Positions 2,469 to 51,508 of a stretch of 64,000 nucleotides of DNA are shown here, piece after piece. The notes beneath the pieces are model-generated. The model was not told where the DNA came from, made no database searches, and saw only the letters and a program-made list of their open reading frames with translations. How positions within the stretch are numbered: position 1 is the first letter of the stretch; every line of letters starts with the position of its first letter. The translations under genes and the position numbers were made by a program. This DNA comes from a virus. Location: the IMG/VR virus record IMGVR_UViG_3300025874_000006, positions 74,352-138,351 of that record. One strand, written 5' to 3'.

Positions 2469-3128
2469 TTATAGTTTAGATTTGATTAACGAGAGGAAAT
2501 TCTTGAATTCCCGAATTTGCACTTCTGGACGAATTGCTATCGGTGCTTGCTTGATTTCAGTCTCTATCTCTTCAATGACTTGAGGTTGCAGAATTCCATT
2601 ATTCCATACCCAGTCGACACCTTCCATAATCCCATTAACGAAAGCTTCAGGTGCACTTGGATCCTGTACAATATCTACAGTACTAAGAATAAAGTCTTCT
2701 TTGACGTACATGACGCCATTTTTGCTCTCAAGACTTCCCATACCACGAGTTGACACGCCTAATTGGACACCACCTTCTAAGAGACCTTTTACGATCTTGC
2801 CCATAGGAGTGTCTAATATTTGTGCTTTTCCTACCACATCAGTGCCTTCTAATTTGAGGTCAGTGATGAGGTGAGAAACTTTATCCAAGTTAACTGTAGG
2901 GCCTTCAGGGTGATTCAACTCACCTACAGCACGCTTCTTGCTAACTTGGTCTTCAACGTACTTATTTACCGCAGACTCCATAATGGCCTTTGGGTAGATT
3001 CGTCCGTTTCTATTCTTTTTGTCTGCTTGCGCAAATACACCTTCAATAATGTAACTCTTCTCACCATTATCTTTAGCTTCTACAATGCATTGTACATCGT
3101 TTTCTACGTATTCGCTAATCAGTTTCAT
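2469..3128 (-). CDS. gp21: Prohead protease
   Basis: IEGVFAQADKKNRNGRIYP, GELNHP, LGVSTRGMGS, DIVQDPSAPEAFV. Confidence 0.97.
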   Translation of the reverse strand: MKLISEYVENDVQCIVEAKDNGEKSYIIEGVFAQADKKNRNGRIYPKAIMESAVNKYVEDQVSKKRAVGELNHPEGPTVNLDKVSHLITDLKLEGTDVVGKAQILDTPMGKIVKGLLEGGVQLGVSTRGMGSLESKNGVMYVKEDFILSTVDIVQDPSAPEAFVNGIMEGVDWVWNNGILQPQVIEEIETEIKQAPIAIRPEVQIREFKNFLSLIKSKL

Positions 3129-3129
3129 T

Positions 3130-3327
3130 TTATTTACCTAAGTCTTTGAGGACTTGTTTCGCGGTTGATTCCGCTTCTTTCTGTGACTTAAACGTATCAA
3201 CAGAATCACCATCAATAGATAGGTGAAAACCTTTGTCCGTTTTTGTGATAACTACAGGGTATTTAGACATCTTCTTATTGAAGACAATCTTGTCCTTGGA
3301 TTCCCGCAAATGTTTAAATGTTTTCAC
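3130..3327 (-). CDS. Small prohead core protein (gp68 position)
   Basis: 65-aa ORF with good RBS (GAGG) and its own late promoters, in the T4 gene 68 position; assignment is by synteny only. Confidence 0.6.
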   Translation of the reverse strand: MKTFKHLRESKDKIVFNKKMSKYPVVITKTDKGFHLSIDGDSVDTFKSQKEAESTAKQVLKDLGK

Positions 3328-33291: not shown

Positions 33292-36200
33292 TTAAGCAAC
33301 CCGTACGTATAAGGTATATGTTTCTGGGGTGTCGAATGACGTTCCACTAATCGTCTCACCGGCATAATTACCAGTGAATGAACGAGAGTAATTACCAGCG
33401 AAGTCATTGTTATAGTTTCCACCGAATGTACGAGAGTAGTTACCCACGAAGTCACCAGCATATGCAGATGCACGATTGCGAGAGTAAACACCAGTATATG
33501 ATGAATTACGTATTCTTGCGTAAGCTGATACGCGAACTCTAGCGTAATCACCAACGTAATCAGTGGAGAATGTGCCAGCATACTCACCAACAAATCCACG
33601 TGAATAGTTTCCTACAAAGTCACCTGTGTAATCGCGAGTGTAATTACCAATGTAATCACCAGTGAAGGTGGTTGCATAATTACCAGTGAAGTTACCTACA
33701 TATTCGCGAGAATACGTTCCTACGTAGTCACGTGAGTAGTTACCAGTGAATGTATTGGAATATGTTCCACTATATTGACCAGAGAAGTCACGTGAGTAGT
33801 TACCAATGTAGTTACCACCAAATGCACGAGTGTAAGTACCAGCATAAGCTCCAGCATACTCACCAACAAACGTTCGGTTATAGGTACCAGTGTACTCACC
33901 AGTAAAGCCGCGGGAGTAGTTGCCTACGTACTGACCAGAGAATTCACGTGAGTAGTTACCAATGTAGTTACCACCAAAGTCACCAACGTAATTACCGACA
34001 AAGTTGCCAGCGAAGTCACGAGCATAATCCCCCGCGAAAGTACGGGAGTAATTACCGGCAAAGTCACCTGCGAAATCAGTTATACGGTCACGAGAGTATG
34101 TTGATGCTCGGTTATTCACATATGAAGACACACGAGTGGTAATATATGCGGAGTAACGAGTACGAGCAGAGGCACGGGTATACTCACCAATGAAGTCTCC
34201 GGCATACTCACCCGCAAATCCACGTGCGTAGTCACCAACAAAATCACCAGCAAAACCACGAGCATAATTACCTACGAAGTTCCCACCGAAGTTAGTTACT
34301 CGGTCTCTAGTGAATGCACCAGAATAGTCTGTAATGCGAGTACGTGCGTAAGATGAAGAACGATTGAGAATAGAGTCACGAGTACTTGTGCGAGCATAGT
34401 TACCTACGAAGTCGCCAGCATAGTAACCGACACGAGTATAGTTACCAGTGTTGGTAAATGTCTGAACACGGTTACGGGTATATGCAGCTGCATAGTTGCC
34501 AGTGTAGTATAATGTGCGAGTATAGTAACCAGTATTTGTAGAAGTACGAGTACTTGTACGAGCATAAGCTCCATTATAAGTGCCAGTGCGGGTACGAGCA
34601 TAGTCACCGACATAGTACAATGTCGCTGCACGGTTGCGAGAATAGTCACCAGCGTATGAGAACGCACGGTTACGAGTGTAGTTACCAGTATAGGTGGCAC
34701 CACGAGTACGAGCATAGTCACCAGCGAAGTTACCAGTAAAGTTAGTTACACGGTCACGTGAGTAGTTACCAGTATATGACGCGGCACGAGTACGACTATA
34801 GTCACCAACAAAGTTGCCAGTATATACGGTTGCACGATTACGTGAGTAATTACCTACATATGAGAATGCGCGGTTACGACCATAGTTACCAGTATAGGTG
34901 GCACCACGAGTACGGCCATAATTACCAGCATAGTATAAAGTGCGAGTGTAGTTACCAGTATATGACGCGGCACGAGTACGACCATAGTTACCAGTATAGG
35001 TGGCACCACGAGTACGAGAATAGTCACCAACGTAGTACGCTGTTACGGTGTTACTAACATAGTTACCAATGTAGTTACCAGCAAAGTTGCCAGTAAAGTT
35101 GCCAGCATAACTACCACCGCCGGGAGGAGTCGTTCCGAATCCAGTACCCCAATAATAAGAATATGCGGCCGCATAATTAGTATCCCTATAGTAAGTATTT
35201 GAACCATATGGGTTAGCAACTACAACGGATGTTACTAAAAGGGCATCAGAATAATGACTGAAGTACTGACTATATCTCAGGTATCCACCAATGTGTATCT
35301 TAAGCGTACCTGAGTTATTTGTTGAAGCGAAAACTTCCCAAGATGTGCCTGGGTTGGTCGATGAGTTACCAGTATATGCATATTGACCATTAGTACCACC
35401 AGTCGTAGACGTGCGAGTAGAAGTACGAGTACTTGTACGAGAATAGGTAGTAGATCTAGTGTAATATGAAGTTGCGCCTACACGAGTTCGACCATAGTTA
35501 CCAACGTAAGAAGCAGCCCGGTTACGAGAATAGTCACCAACGTAAGAAGCAGCACGTGCACGAGTATATGTTCCAGTACCTGTCCCAGTTCTTGCGTAAT
35601 CACCAACGTAAGACGCAGTACGGTTACGAGAATAGTTACCGGCATAAGAACCAGTACGAGTGCGACCATAGTTACCTACGAAGTCACCAGTGTAGTTTGT
35701 TACACGAGTTCGACCATAGTTACCAACGTAAGAAGCAGCCCGGTTACGAGAATAGTTACCTACGAAGTTACCGGCATAGTCTGTTACACGAGTTCGACCA
35801 TAGTTACCAACATAAGATGCACCACGTGCACGAGTATATGTTCCACCATAAGTGCCAGTACGAGTTCGACCATAGTTACCAGTGTAAGTGACACCAGTGG
35901 TACTTGTGCGAGCGTAGTTACCCACGTATGAGAATGCACGTTGACGAGCATAGTTACCTACGAAGTCGCCTGCATAGTACAATGTACGAGAGTATGCTGG
36001 AGTAGCAGAGTAGTCCGCTGAATAGTTACGAGCATAGTTGCCGGTAAAGTCACCAACATAATATAGTGTACGAGTGTAGTTTAGTGTACGAGTAGAAGTT
36101 CTAGTAGAAGTTCTTGCGTATTCGCCTACGAAGTCACCGATATAGTTACCAACAAAGTTTCTTGCGTAGTCACCTACGAAGTCGCCAGTAAAGTTACGAG

Positions 36201-37956
36201 CGTAATTACCTACGAAGTTACCAGCAAAGTCAGTTACACGGTCACGTGCATATGCAGAGTAACGTGTGCGTGTTGATGTGCGAGCATAAGCTGAGTAACG
36301 AGTTCTAGCAGAAGCGCGAGTAGAAACACGAGCGTAGTCACCGATAAAGTCTCCGGCAAAAGCACGAGAATAGTTGCCTTCGAAATTTCGTGAATAATCA
36401 CCCACGAAAGTCCTTGCATAGTTACCTACAAAGTTGCCAGCAAAGTTAGTAACACGATTGCGGGTGTATGCAGATACTCTAGCGCGAGAGAAGACCCCTG
36501 CGAAGTTAGTTACACGATCACGAGAATATTCGGTGATGCGTGTACGAGTATAGTCTAGTGAATAAGAAGAAGTTCTTGTACGACTATAAGTGCCTGCATA
36601 AGCAGACCCACGAGTGCGAGAATAAGTCCCCGCATAAGCAGATACTCGGTTACGTGTATAAGTGCCACTATATGTTCCGGCATATGAAGAAACTCGTATG
36701 CGAGTGTAATCAGCGGAATAGGTTGAAGCACGAGTGCGTGAATATTCACCTGTGTATGTTGATACTCGGCCTCGTGTATAAGAAGATGGACGATTACGAG
36801 AATAAATTCCACTAAAGTAACTTACACGGTCGCGGGTATATGTTGATACACGTGCACGACTATAAGTTCCAGTAAAAGTTGCAGCGAAAGCAGTCAATCG
36901 ATTACGTGAGTAAGTTGAATTACGGGTGCGTGAGTAAGTTCCAGCGAAAGTTGAGTTACGTGTTCTTGTATACTCTCCGGTAAAGTCACGGGAGTAATTA
37001 CCTCCAAAGTCACGCGAATATACACCAGTGTACTCGCCTACAAATTCACGAGAGAAGTCTGCAATACGATTAGTGGTGTAAGAAGAAACTCGGTCACGGG
37101 TATAGGCTGATACTCTAGTACGCACATACGCAGATGCACGAGTACGTGAGTAATCGGCAGTAACGATTGAACGTTGAGTATTCTCAGCAGAACCACGTGG
37201 GGCCCATGTACCGGATGAAGTTGGAACACCTTGTGCAGATGAACGCAACTGGTATGAACCAATTTCACCTGCTGTCGCTCGAAGGGATTTAGCACGTTGA
37301 CCAAGAGTGTACTTGATCTCTGCGTCTGACATTTCTTTTAGACCATTAAACGATGAGGTACCGTCATAATCGGTCGCAACTGGACGAACTGTTGTAACAC
37401 CAGCTGGTGGCGTCGCAAGAGTAACTCTTTTCCAGATATGATAATTTACTGACGTACCGTCTCCCAGAGTATTGGAAAACACAGTATCAATGTGTTTAGC
37501 CCAGTCACCGCCTGGGGATGTGACAGAAAGTTCGAATGCACCTTGAAGACCTAAAGTCTCTAGATTTTTTAGTGCACGGTTGGTTAAGTTATCCAAATCT
37601 GCGTCTACCATTTCGTAGAAGCCTGGGTTTGGTTCAACTTCGTAATAACCGACAGGACGGACAAAATCAGTACCAGTTTCACTTGCAGAACCACCTACCT
37701 GTTTAAGGGTAGTAGTTACTGTAGTACCTGTGATGTTTGACAACGGGTGAGTACCCTCTGGTTCATTGTAGTACGTATCTACATATGAACCGATGCTAAC
37801 ACCATCAGTTAAACTGATATCACCGACATCACCAGCAGAGGCCTCTGCTAGTGCTTCGCCCACCTTTACAGCGAGATACATCTCTTCTGTAGGTGTTAAT
37901 TCCTGTAGGTCACCATTAGCATTTTTAATTTTTAGTGGTATACTAGATGCTGACAC
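33292..37956 (-). CDS. 1554-aa Tyr/Arg/Gly tetrad-repeat protein; predicted self-pairing long beta-hairpin fibre
   Basis: 268-aa N-domain, 585-aa repeat arm, 96-aa core, 585-aa repeat arm, 20-aa tail; own late promoter at 38007-38014. Confidence 0.85.
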   Translation of the reverse strand: MSASSIPLKIKNANGDLQELTPTEEMYLAVKVGEALAEASAGDVGDISLTDGVSIGSYVDTYYNEPEGTHPLSNITGTTVTTTLKQVGGSASETGTDFVRPVGYYEVEPNPGFYEMVDADLDNLTNRALKNLETLGLQGAFELSVTSPGGDWAKHIDTVFSNTLGDGTSVNYHIWKRVTLATPPAGVTTVRPVATDYDGTSSFNGLKEMSDAEIKYTLGQRAKSLRATAGEIGSYQLRSSAQGVPTSSGTWAPRGSAENTQRSIVTADYSRTRASAYVRTRVSAYTRDRVSSYTTNRIADFSREFVGEYTGVYSRDFGGNYSRDFTGEYTRTRNSTFAGTYSRTRNSTYSRNRLTAFAATFTGTYSRARVSTYTRDRVSYFSGIYSRNRPSSYTRGRVSTYTGEYSRTRASTYSADYTRIRVSSYAGTYSGTYTRNRVSAYAGTYSRTRGSAYAGTYSRTRTSSYSLDYTRTRITEYSRDRVTNFAGVFSRARVSAYTRNRVTNFAGNFVGNYARTFVGDYSRNFEGNYSRAFAGDFIGDYARVSTRASARTRYSAYARTSTRTRYSAYARDRVTDFAGNFVGNYARNFTGDFVGDYARNFVGNYIGDFVGEYARTSTRTSTRTLNYTRTLYYVGDFTGNYARNYSADYSATPAYSRTLYYAGDFVGNYARQRAFSYVGNYARTSTTGVTYTGNYGRTRTGTYGGTYTRARGASYVGNYGRTRVTDYAGNFVGNYSRNRAASYVGNYGRTRVTNYTGDFVGNYGRTRTGSYAGNYSRNRTASYVGDYARTGTGTGTYTRARAASYVGDYSRNRAASYVGNYGRTRVGATSYYTRSTTYSRTSTRTSTRTSTTGGTNGQYAYTGNSSTNPGTSWEVFASTNNSGTLKIHIGGYLRYSQYFSHYSDALLVTSVVVANPYGSNTYYRDTNYAAAYSYYWGTGFGTTPPGGGSYAGNFTGNFAGNYIGNYVSNTVTAYYVGDYSRTRGATYTGNYGRTRAASYTGNYTRTLYYAGNYGRTRGATYTGNYGRNRAFSYVGNYSRNRATVYTGNFVGDYSRTRAASYTGNYSRDRVTNFTGNFAGDYARTRGATYTGNYTRNRAFSYAGDYSRNRAATLYYVGDYARTRTGTYNGAYARTSTRTSTNTGYYTRTLYYTGNYAAAYTRNRVQTFTNTGNYTRVGYYAGDFVGNYARTSTRDSILNRSSSYARTRITDYSGAFTRDRVTNFGGNFVGNYARGFAGDFVGDYARGFAGEYAGDFIGEYTRASARTRYSAYITTRVSSYVNNRASTYSRDRITDFAGDFAGNYSRTFAGDYARDFAGNFVGNYVGDFGGNYIGNYSREFSGQYVGNYSRGFTGEYTGTYNRTFVGEYAGAYAGTYTRAFGGNYIGNYSRDFSGQYSGTYSNTFTGNYSRDYVGTYSREYVGNFTGNYATTFTGDYIGNYTRDYTGDFVGNYSRGFVGEYAGTFSTDYVGDYARVRVSAYARIRNSSYTGVYSRNRASAYAGDFVGNYSRTFGGNYNNDFAGNYSRSFTGNYAGETISGTSFDTPETYTLYVRVA
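33355..35109 (-). repeat. C-terminal repeat arm (585 aa of 4-residue units)
   Basis: Units such as YAGN FTGN YSRT RGAT; degenerate 12/24/36-bp DNA repeats. Confidence 0.9.
35398..37152 (-). repeat. N-terminal repeat arm (585 aa of 4-residue units)
   Basis: Units such as YSRT RASA YVRT RVSA FVGE. Confidence 0.9.
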
Positions 37957-38082: not shown

Positions 38083-38562
38083 TTAAATATCTAATGTTGG
38101 CCATACAACATCATCTAAAGAACCTACTATTGACATATCCAAAGTCTCTGTGATATCACGCAATTCTTGTCTATACGACATGATGGTTTGTCGTTCTTCT
38201 TCTGTAAAGGGAGAATCGACAACAAGCATCCAATCAGTCTCTATGATTTTTTGGTTGCGGACAAATCGTATTTCGTTAACAATATGTTCTATGTCCCATA
38301 CCCATTCACCGTTTTCCCACGTAGCGTATACATTTGGTTTTGGTGGAACCTCAATAAACATCTGGTCATCTTCGTCCCAGACGCGAGTATTCATGAACTC
38401 CATCTCGCTAAGGCCTTCCAAATCCCAAATCCTATGAACTAGTCTATCATCGTCTACGGAATGACCGTCTTCCGGATACATTCCATTATCCATGTCGGTT
38501 CTTACGATTACGCCTGCTTCTGTATGTATGGCGACTTTAGGGTGCATCTTATATCTCTCCAA
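38083..38562 (-). CDS. Tail fibre assembly chaperone-like protein
   Basis: C-terminal IRFVRNQKIIETDWM..DSP..YRQELRDIT..VVWPT motif of phage tail assembly chaperones. Confidence 0.85.
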   Translation of the reverse strand: MERYKMHPKVAIHTEAGVIVRTDMDNGMYPEDGHSVDDDRLVHRIWDLEGLSEMEFMNTRVWDEDDQMFIEVPPKPNVYATWENGEWVWDIEHIVNEIRFVRNQKIIETDWMLVVDSPFTEEERQTIMSYRQELRDITETLDMSIVGSLDDVVWPTLDI

Positions 38563-49033: not shown

Positions 49034-51508
49034 TTATAACCTGCCTAACTTGACTCTTAGTTTGTTGTTCTCTAGAATTTGTATGTTGTCTTCTTCGAAC
49101 CGTATGGAAGAACCACCAGTGAATGCGTCTTTAATACCCTGTAGACTCAATACACCAGTAGAAGTAATTTCGGTAAACGCAACATCAGCGCCACTATAGT
49201 TACTAGCACCCTGATATTGGAAAACGCGTCCTGTACCTAAGTTCCAATAGACATCGTTATTAAGAACTTCATTGCTTCCACGGAACTGTCGAACCAAATC
49301 CGACTTAGAACTTGTACCAGAATCTGAGTTTATAGACGAGTCGGTATCAAATACGATTGCATTACCAGCGGAACCTGCTGCGCCAGTTGGGCCTTGTGGG
49401 CCTTGAGCGCCCTGAGAACCTTGTGGCCCTTGTGCACCAACATTACCTTGAGCACCAGTGTTACCCTGTGGGCCTTGTGCACCAGTGTCACCTTTAGCAC
49501 CAGTGTTACCCTGTGGGCCTTGAGCACCAGTATCTCCTTTAGGGCCAACGTTACCCTGCGGGCCTTGTGCACCAGTGTCACCTTTAGCACCAACGTCTCC
49601 TTTAGCACCAACGTTACCCTGTGGGCCTTGAGCACCAGTGTCGCCTTTAGGGCCTGCATCACCTTGAGGCCCGGCAATACCTTGAGCACCTTGTAGACCT
49701 TGTGCACCTTGGTCTCCGACATCTCCTTTAGCACCAACAGAACCTTGCGGGCCCTGTGCACCTTGTGGCCCGGTGTCTCCGGTTAAACCTCTTGGGCCAA
49801 CCAAACCTTGTGGGCCTGCAACGCCTTGTGGGCCTATGTCACCCTGTGCACCGATATCACCTTGGTCACCTTTCGGGCCAGTATCACCTTGCGGGCCCTG
49901 TGCACCCTGAAGTCCTATTTCCCCTTGAAGTCCTATTGCCCCCTGTGCACCAACAGCACCTTGTTGACCCTGAGCGCCTTGGAGACCTATATCCCCCTGA
50001 AGACCTACATCTCCTTGAGGGCCTTGGATACCTTGTTCACCTTGAACACCAATAGGGCCTTGAGCACCCTGCTCTCCTTGTAGTCCAGTTGGGCCAATAG
50101 CACCTTGAAGTCCTTGTGGGCCTTGAGCACCTTGATCACCAATCGGGCCTTGAGCACCAACTGTTAGAAACGCATCTAAGAAACTACTTGACGTAATATT
50201 TGAAGCAACAGCAGCAATCGCATATATCTGCCAGTTGATGTTAGTAACACCGCCTGGCACTGCGGTCGGGTTTGGATTCCACAAGTAAGTACCACCATTA
50301 GTTTGGTAGATACCACCAGTCAAAGATGACCCTGTAGGTTTTAGGTTATTCGGGTCATAGTCCCTAGGAGCATTAGTATAGTATGGGAAGTTAGTCTCAC
50401 CCGTAGCACCAGCAGCACCTTGTTGTCCAGAACTACCTTGTAGTCCAGTTGGGCCAGGCAAACCTTGTGCACCTTGAGGGCCTTGAGCACCAGTGTCACC
50501 TTGAAGACCTTGGGCACCTTGCAAACCTACCGCACCGTCTTCTCCTTTAGGGCCTTGTTCTCCTTGAAGACCTCTTAGTCCCTGTGCACCTTGTTGTCCT
50601 CTAGGGCCTTCTTCTCCTTGAAGACCAGTTGGGCCTTGAGCACCCTGTTCACCAATATCACCTTTAGGGCCTACCGAACCAGTCGGCCCAGTAGGGCCTT
50701 GGATACCTTGTTCACCTTGAATACCAATATCACCCTGAAGTCCAGTTTCACCTTGACTACCTTGAACACCTATATCACCTTGAGGGCCCGGAAGTCCTTG
50801 TTCACCAGTTTCACCCTGATTACCTTGAAGACCCTGTAGTCCAATTGGGCCTGCGGGGCCAGTTTCACCTTGTTCTCCTTGGTTACCTTGAATACCCTGT
50901 AATCCGATTGGGCCAGTTAGTCCTTGCGGGCCTGTCTCACCTTGGTTACCTTGGACACCTTGTTCTCCTTTCTCACCAACATCGCCTTGCGGGCCAGTCT
51001 CTCCCTGATTACCCTGAAGACCCTGTTCTCCTTGAGGGCCTGGGTCACCTTGAGGGCCTTGAAGACCTATGTCTCCAGCAGCACCTTGAGGGCCCTGTGG
51101 GCCATCTGGGCCTTGGATGCCCTGTTCTCCCTGAAGACCTACATCTCCTTGTGGGCCAGGCAAACCTTGTGCACCTTGTGCACCCATGATAGCAATTCGT
51201 GTCGGTACTTCCCATTGTGCCGGTACTGAGTCTCCGGTAGAAGGATTTCCGTTTACGTATCGTCTACATTGCCAGAGGACTGGAAAGGATTGACTTAGGT
51301 CACCTTGAGAGGTGCTCCAAGATATTCCGTCTGTTCCTCCGTCTGGAGAAGGTAAACCATAAGTCCAACTATCACTAGGAAGTTGAGACGATAGGAAATC
51401 CCCAGCATCATCGATACTGGAGATTGTTTTAGTATAAATGTACTCAAAGCCAGACGCATCATATAGATCTGTAAATGTTATAGATTGTGAGGCTCTTATG
51501 GTTGCCAT
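49034..51508 (-). CDS. Collagen-like fibre protein with two uninterrupted Gly-X-Y rods
   Basis: 88 triplets (50393-51184) and 89 triplets (49358-50158) around a 78-aa domain; C-terminal RVKLGRL. Confidence 0.9.

Follow-up and report, generated by a model that had tools for sequence, protein, structure and literature searches.

How can two distant repeat arrays within a single protein stay equal in length? This question, which is evolutionary and testable, is raised by a fibre-like protein of 1554 amino acids (P0001) that is encoded on the minus strand at 33292-37956, with a GTG start and a stop codon at 33292-33294, in a 64,000-nucleotide stretch of DNA from a marine myovirus of the cyanophage type (the window; positions 74,352 to 138,351 of IMG/VR record IMGVR_UViG_3300025874_000006, which is 151 kb in length and approximately 91% complete). 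P0001 has two periodic arms of 560 residues, arm 1 at residues 269-828 (35473-37152, minus strand) and arm 2 at residues 975-1534 (33355-35034, minus strand). Each consists of 137 four-residue units and 6 two-residue inserts, giving 143 elements per arm, and arm 2 is mirror-complementary to arm 1. From this pattern in the sequence we propose, with a probability of roughly 0.75, that P0001 is a fold-back antiparallel fibre shaft, in which an anchor domain and the C terminus lie together at the base and a tip domain is encoded in mid-sequence.

Mirrored breaks in the repeat register

The original prediction, made from the letters of the window alone, held that two-residue inserts break the four-residue period six times in each arm, and that the breaks line up when the arms are mirrored, as LN/GY, LY/GN, PA/LY, LY/GY, VT/LY and GT/LY. 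This alignment is exact. Following arm 1 (all positions on the minus strand), LN625-626 (36079-36084) lies opposite GY1177-1178 (34423-34428), LY631-632 (36061-36066) opposite GN1171-1172 (34441-34446), PA653-654 (35995-36000) opposite LY1149-1150 (34507-34512), LY659-660 (35977-35982) opposite GY1143-1144 (34525-34530), VT689-690 (35887-35892) opposite LY1113-1114 (34615-34620) and GT795-796 (35569-35574) opposite LY1007-1008 (34933-34938). The number of the first residue of an insert and that of the last residue of its partner sum to 1803 in 6 of 6 pairs, and the region named in the prediction, 34400-36090 (residues 623-1186), contains all twelve inserts (34423-36084). At the breaks, the first inserted residues that lie opposite each other are L:G, L:G, P:L, L:G, V:L and G:L.

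Two irregular nine-residue stretches next to the core of the protein, which had also been predicted to face each other, obey the same rule: TSYYTRSTT at residues 829-837 (35446-35472, minus strand) and YVSNTVTAY at residues 966-974 (35035-35061, minus strand) mirror each other with a sum of 1803, and both shift the phase by a net +1. When the order of the elements in arm 2 was shuffled 100,000 times, no shuffle reached six of six matches of insert to insert, and at most three inserts coincided when the arms were displaced by -12 to +12 units.

A pairing code between repeat units

The mirror relationship extends from the inserts to the units between them. We classified units as G ([YF]xGx), Q ([YF]xRx) or R (those without a leading aromatic residue, for example RxxS or STRT). 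Every R unit of P0001, comprising 41 in arm 1 and 27 in arm 2 (68 of 68), lies opposite a G unit; there are no R:R or R:Q pairs, and 31 pairs are Q:Q. No other unit shift yields more than 41 R:G pairs, and 68 were reached in 0 of 100,000 shuffles. A single register accounts for all 143 of the 143 elements of P0001, and the complementarity persists where the two arms carry different types of repeat, for example at residues 333-508 versus 1295-1470. The code also holds out of sample: 684 R units in other relatives lie opposite a G unit, none opposite an R unit and 1 opposite a Q unit. In the related protein of phage C48C1, residue pairs include 185 of aromatic with R and 96 of aromatic with G, versus 2 aromatic-aromatic pairs and no R-R or G-G pairs.

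At the level of residues, the best chemical register is i+j=1802, which places position 1 of a unit opposite position 3. One face then shows Tyr:Gly, Tyr:Arg and Arg:Gly pairs, and the other shows aliphatic:aliphatic and Asn/Asp:Asn/Asp pairs. Such like-with-like and big-with-small pairs would fit directly opposite residues of an antiparallel beta ladder. Mutual information calculated per register was dominated by the periodicity, with a weak preference for 1802 and 1800.

Paired length changes across relatives

We compared ten relatives that have 42-70% identity: seven close IMG/VR proteins, the protein of phage C48C1 and two further proteins (L014 and L015). For the mirror test, a pair matrix was learned from one protein, and a protein was then locally aligned, without constraint, to its own reverse. 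This alignment replaced an early, crude scan of phase tracks in 107 homologs, which gave inconsistent registers; similarly, unit-level mirror tables replaced a plain MAFFT alignment of P0001 and its IMG/VR relative L003, which placed insertions and deletions (indels) ambiguously within the repeats. A matrix learned from L018 alone (42% identity) recovered a single ungapped block in P0001, which spans 566 pairs (265:1537 to 830:972). In the reverse direction, the P0001 matrix gave single ungapped blocks of 577 pairs in L003, 604 in L004, 587 in L007, 475 in L005, 668 in L010, 771 in L008 and 890 in L018. Phase concordance was 93-99% across the seven close relatives; in C48C1, L014 and L015 it varied from block to block, at 81-100%.

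Across the ten relatives, arm length ranges from 226 to approximately 1,030 residues, and the lengths of the two arms co-vary. The close relatives have up to 13 breaks per arm, with a placement that differs from protein to protein, and nearly all of these breaks face, at the exact mirror position, a break of equal length; the exceptions stem from ambiguous parsing, for instance where a double break was taken for two units. The expectation that relatives would differ by paired indels was borne out, as length changes occur as mirror pairs across P0001, L003, L005 and others. For example, both arms of P0001 and of L005 contain a 28-residue module, composed of five units and a double break, that neither arm of L003 has. 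The interval from the VT break to the break that follows spans 26 units in P0001, approximately 36 in L003 and 16 in L005, equal in both arms of each protein.

The relative with the longest arms among the ten extends this pattern. Phage C48C1 (Kyanoviridae), the nearest isolate genome, encodes a protein of 3347 amino acids (CDS0201; L002:612-10655) in which arm 1 (residues 269-1297) aligns continuously to segments of arm 2. The gaps in arm 2 coincide exactly with five globular inserts of 115-317 residues (residues 1818-2134, 2410-2578, 2651-2804, 2889-3066 and approximately 3138-3252), none of which has a Pfam match, and the innermost block comprises 438 ungapped pairs. In the same protein, a stretch of approximately 73 residues occurs twice in tandem (approximately 2008-2080 and 2083-2155). 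An open reading frame (ORF) of 3884 amino acids on another IMG/VR contig (L019:4349-16000) is longer still; it has a clear inner block of 392 ungapped mirror pairs, and its outer arms, which contain many inserted segments, align only piecewise.

Among the 107 metagenome homologs, 6 have an ungapped block that comprises 200 pairs or more, and each of these blocks runs from just past the N-terminal domain to within 20 residues of the C terminus. Three distant homologs (P0004, P0008 and P0009; approximately 30% identity) each have a unique best register in the outer arms, with a score of approximately 120 versus at most 65.

The original prediction also suggested that the inserts could be kinks or points of twist relief. 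A doubtful but possible alternative is that the breaks are neutral half-period slips or scars of module junctions, matched merely through the pairing code and without a hinge or twist-relief role. Their number and spacing vary freely, up to the 13 per arm noted above, and their residues are loosely conserved (the first is aliphatic or Gly, the second Y, N, T, A or S), as this alternative would have it; removing a mirrored pair in silico also keeps the complementarity. Their distribution speaks against neutrality. By our calculation and reading, breaks in every relative occur solely within the distal 17-36% of an arm. The outermost double break, with its STRT STRT flanks, is a landmark kept in P0001, L003, L004, L005, L007, L008, L018 and C48C1. 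In addition, arm 1 of L008 (6001-11511) and of L018 (6001-12177) contains five consecutive ten-residue repeats, each of two units and an insert, and breaks recur every 10 residues in both arms; in the inner arms of these two proteins, YTGNYARTLY (approximately five copies in arm 1) faces a different repeat, YARDRAYYP[ST] (four to five copies in arm 2). Together, the distal confinement, the landmark and the ten-residue series point to a feature of the distal shaft that may be under selection; the first two also hint at a mechanical role for the breaks, such as flexibility or twist.

Tests of compensation

The central claim of the original prediction was that an indel in one arm is tolerated only if it is compensated at the mirror position. 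For small indels of the shaft this agrees with the data, as the mirror alignments of the seven close IMG/VR relatives have no gap inside the arms. Deletions made in silico served as a control of the method: when two or four amino acids were removed from a single arm, the alignment needed a gap opposite the deletion, and a mirrored double deletion needed none. Because single-arm deletions show as gaps, uncompensated indels would have been detected. Chimeras in which arms were swapped among six relatives required four to nine blocks in 30 of 30 cases, and the six native proteins each aligned as one arm-long block (6 of 6). Near-identical variants from marine metagenomes differ by substitutions and have no in-frame indels, which is weak support as contigs hide rare variants. 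Metagenome contig 'joints' on the gene were left unused, as their short sides, at 85% likeness, derive from repeats or relatives. C48C1 and L014 carry their large globular domains (115-317 amino acids) in arm 2 alone; the compensation rule therefore covers small indels of the shaft and not looped-out domains.

These results bear on whether the arms pair physically at all. The mirror pattern could be a by-product of repeat evolution, arising by inverted duplication of DNA or by drift of similar arrays, given that both arms use similar repeats of 4, 8 and 12 residues and that a G-Q-R 12-mer repeat is automatically self-complementary in one-third of registers. We consider this extremely improbable in light of complementarity across unlike repeats, the placement of every element in one register, the failure of the chimeras and the co-variation of arm lengths. 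Inverted duplication at the DNA level was rejected in its own right, because it would encode unrelated residues on the coding strand, with no complementarity at the protein level.

Replacement of the core and concerted change of the arms

Between the arms, at approximately residues 850-949 (35110-35409, minus strand), P0001 has a non-repeat core with Gly-rich linkers on either side, which is the proposed distal tip. In 50-residue windows, P0001 and L003 share 76-96% identity in the N-terminal domain, 70-96% in the outer arms and 28-29% in the core. Cores fall into types that are unrelated to each other in sequence: one type is common to L003 and L005, a second to L004 and L007, and P0001, L008 and L010 have one each of their own. 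In L018 the core is almost absent, and the apex is a Pro/Gly-rich stretch of approximately 20 residues. An attachment end that is conserved, together with a distal end that varies and can be exchanged, is taken here to mark a tail fibre. The family shows this combination, and these sequences are consistent with a core that acts as a swappable receptor-binding tip.

The arms of L005 form a mosaic with mirror-symmetric blocks. Residues 361-520 and 1041-1200 resemble L003, residues 521-680 and 881-1040 resemble P0001, and the centre, including the core, again resembles L003. The relatedness of L005 to P0001 or L003 at residue i correlates with that at the mirror residue S-i (r=0.87), with the peak at an offset of 0. 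Across 60 triples of proteins, the median r was 0.72, and in 41 of 59 the peak fell no more than 5 residues from the complementarity-derived register. This suggests that mirror segments are inherited together. The simplest route would be a nested exchange, in which recombination between phages swaps one contiguous distal piece (inner arm 1, the tip and inner arm 2), changing the length of both arms jointly, followed by selection on the register, which would keep the arms equal in length.

A fold-back model of the shaft

We hypothesize that the chain runs from the anchor domain of 268 residues outward for approximately 580 residues along arm 1, forms a tip of approximately 100 residues and comes back along arm 2, with the C-terminal tail returning beside the N-terminal domain. 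Given that the arms are mirror-complementary over their whole length, their pairing would be antiparallel, with residue i against approximately residue 1802-i, most likely in an antiparallel beta-ribbon that could oligomerize further. Within the unit [Y/F/R]-small-[G/R/small]-[N/D/T/S], positions 1 and 3 would point to one face and positions 2 and 4 to the other, and a bulky position 1 would sit opposite position 3 of the partner unit, which would give rise to the pairing code. Under this code, a non-aromatic unit (RxxS or STRT) would have to face [YF]xGx, and YxRx would mostly face YxRx, with Tyr over Arg; on the other face, aliphatic residues would lie opposite aliphatic residues and Asn/Asp opposite Asn/Asp. 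A two-residue insert shifts the alternation of big and small residues by half a period, and would therefore be acceptable only with a mirror insert; at the break sites an aliphatic residue would face Gly or another aliphatic residue.

The two ends of the protein are relevant to the proposed return of the chain. The N-terminal globular domain (residues 1-268; 37153-37956, minus strand) is conserved across the family, is matched by 63 of the 107 homologs and is likely the end that anchors the protein to the virion. An AlphaFold2 model of this domain, built from a 42-sequence alignment, has a predicted local distance difference test score (pLDDT) of 88 and a predicted template modelling score of 0.82. 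The C-terminal tail (residues 1535-1554; 33295-33354, minus strand) contains the conserved motif ETYTLYVRVA. Of 45 homologs that have the domain at their N terminus, 37 contain the motif as a strict pattern, and 7 of the remaining 8 show a variant of it by our reading of their C termini. The domain and the motif, in the form (E/D)TYTLYVR, thus co-occur across homologs, and the two ends may form one base structure.

Arm 1 could instead pair, antiparallel, with arm 2 of another chain, in a head-to-tail dimer or a swapped oligomer, producing an extended rod with N-terminal domains at both ends or a swapped bundle. All of the sequence results fix only that i+j is constant, which an antiparallel homodimer also satisfies. 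We judge this arrangement improbable. The centre of these proteins, which ranges from the Pro/Gly stretch of L018 to Gly-linked domains of 100 residues, suits a turn or a tip rather than a self-paired midpoint; the co-occurrence of the C-terminal motif with the N-terminal domain is expected if the chain returns to its own start; and a rod with an anchor domain at each end is hard to square with a tail fibre. The short L018 apex, the Gly-rich linkers of the core and the co-occurrence of the two ends favour pairing within the chain.

Several points count against the fold-back model. Pairing within and between chains predict an identical sequence pattern. Structure prediction offers no help: an AlphaFold2 run on residues 740-1063 (the central 324 residues, with a seven-sequence alignment) had a mean pLDDT of 28.8 and is unusable. 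A fully extended arm would measure approximately 190 nm in P0001 and 340 nm in C48C1, which is long for a tail fibre. The correlations in the mosaic derive in part from concerted indels, the triples are non-independent, and a parallel-shift control in L005 gives r=0.74, as the alternating pattern of blocks also produces it. Among distant homologs, many need small gaps under pair-matrix scoring. A 15-residue motif that shifts the phase by +1 (GAQGTGASVVSGENV-like) occurs in both arms of P0004, P0008 and P0009, where the copies are side by side and not exactly opposite; in P0004 and P0009 it is an adjacent copy, and not one exactly opposite, that compensates the motif. Of the copies in P0004, three lie in arm 1 and one lies in the portion of arm 2 that aligns. 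Among the sequences compared, the strict mirror rule is thus seen to hold for the closer group only.

ESMFold and AlphaFold2 gave no usable model of the shaft. A complex prediction of residues 691-828 with residues 975-1112 had a score of 0.00 and a pLDDT of approximately 26, and is evidence neither for nor against pairing.

Composition and homology of P0001

Between Y269 and Y1531 aromatic residues are spaced at intervals of 4 or 8, and the core at approximately 850-949 is the sole interruption. Arg, Thr, Tyr, Gly and Ser are abundant in the arms, which contain no His or Cys; Cys is absent from the whole protein. With 11-15% Arg and few acidic residues, the two arms together have a net charge of +84, and the shaft would be strongly basic.

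Homology searches returned little. The whole protein had no family matches in Pfam or PHROGs, neither the N-terminal domain alone nor the core alone matched Pfam, and phmmer found no match among all PDB chains at E<=1. A look-up in the ESM Atlas gave unnamed viral clusters only, with scores of at most 0.83. Fold searches with the model of the N-terminal domain gave no usable assignment in the PDB with Foldseek (best E 0.08), in BFVD (best E 0.08) or in a VIA wide search (best Z 4.6, to the C-terminal beta domains of MACPF and MABP). The homologs of P0001 in phage C48C1 and on IMG/VR contigs start and end alike. One metagenome homolog, P0002 (1798 amino acids), is a different architecture inside the P0001 family: behind an N-terminal domain of the P0001 type come a Laminin_G_3 domain, a propeller of eight FG-GAP repeats and a periodic region of 865 residues.

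Genomic context

P0001 is encoded in a tail and baseplate module that is T4-like and cyanophage-like, with genes for baseplate wedge, tail-fibre and collagen-like fibre proteins. Directly upstream is a separate gene for a tail-fibre assembly chaperone (38083-38562, minus strand), which matches Pfam PF16778 Phage_tail_APC with an E value of 8e-14, above the curated cut-off, and phrog_4912. The same order of chaperone then fibre occurs in phage C48C1. Both the location in a tail and baseplate module and the adjoining fibre assembly chaperone identify P0001 as a tail-fibre candidate. The stretch was found in metagenomes from at least 12 studies. Within the same window, a collagen-like fibre gene (49034-51508, minus strand) matches many PHROGs of collagen-like tail fibres. 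On the plus strand opposite the repeat arms (34554-35891), several ORFs of 60-141 amino acids encode His/Tyr/Gln-rich sequences (for example 35466-35891); these appear to be side effects of the periodic codon pattern rather than genes.

Comparison with known systems

The closest known system to P0001 is the receptor-binding needle of the long tail fibre of phage T4, formed by the C-terminal region of gp37 (domains D10 and D11). In that protein, D10 is formed by residues 811-881 together with residues 1010-1026, and iron ions bound to histidines hold the needle trimer (PMC6957217). Shared with the model proposed here are an out-and-back chain, a tip in mid-sequence, ends that lie together, a T4-like myovirus background and an assembly chaperone, which gp37 needs and which is encoded next to P0001. 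However, the arms of gp37 comprise a few dozen residues (the whole needle, 811-1026, is approximately 216 residues), whereas those described here comprise 560 to approximately 1,030, and P0001 differs further in arms without His or Cys, a strict four-residue period, a unit pairing code and a lack of similarity to PDB chains.

Two other systems offer parallels in logic. In RNA helices, distant segments likewise pair in antiparallel, a change is accepted with a matching change, and pairing was demonstrated by comparative analysis. The likeness is an analogy only: P0001 is a protein, its alphabet consists of four-residue unit types (R:G, Q:Q and insert:insert), and what is compensated is register and length in addition to identity. 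Stutters, stammers and skips in coiled coils are likewise position-conserved breaks of a period, which have to fall at one axial level across all partner strands; unlike these alpha-helical structures of period 7, P0001 has a period of 4 and a Gly/Tyr/Arg/Thr-rich composition that suggests beta structure, and the partner would be its own returning chain.

A further comparison is with triple-stranded beta-helix and beta-spiral shafts of phage and viral fibres, such as the C terminus of T4 gp5 with its VxGxxxxx octads, T4 gp12 and the adenovirus fibre. These shafts consist of short beta repeats that contain Gly and have periods of 8-15, in three parallel chains that have no mirror relation within a chain. 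Family models in Pfam and PHROGs matched neither Gly-X-Y triplets nor VxGxxxxx octads in P0001, the period of which is 4. In the literature that we searched on cyanophage fibre structure, chain reversal, fold-back and phage C48C1, we found no description of the P0001 family. On balance, we lean towards the view that these proteins represent an undescribed architecture, a very long single-chain 'protein stem' with a unit-level code, arms of approximately 230 to 1,030 residues that nature would tune in length through joint, mirror-symmetric exchange, gain or loss of segments, a swappable receptor-binding domain at the apex and occasional domains looped out of one strand.

Implications

If the fold-back model is correct, long-range antiparallel pairing in a protein could be read from compensated breaks and complementary units, as is done for RNA secondary structure. 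This sequence logic works where AlphaFold2 and ESMFold give nothing. The period-4 code, tunable length, looped-out domains and insertion site at the apex make the shaft an attractive scaffold for designed nanofibres. For the abundant marine myoviruses that carry such fibres, the model would represent a novel principle of shaft construction, and it would explain how the length of a fibre and its tip can change as one contiguous cassette while the shaft stays intact.

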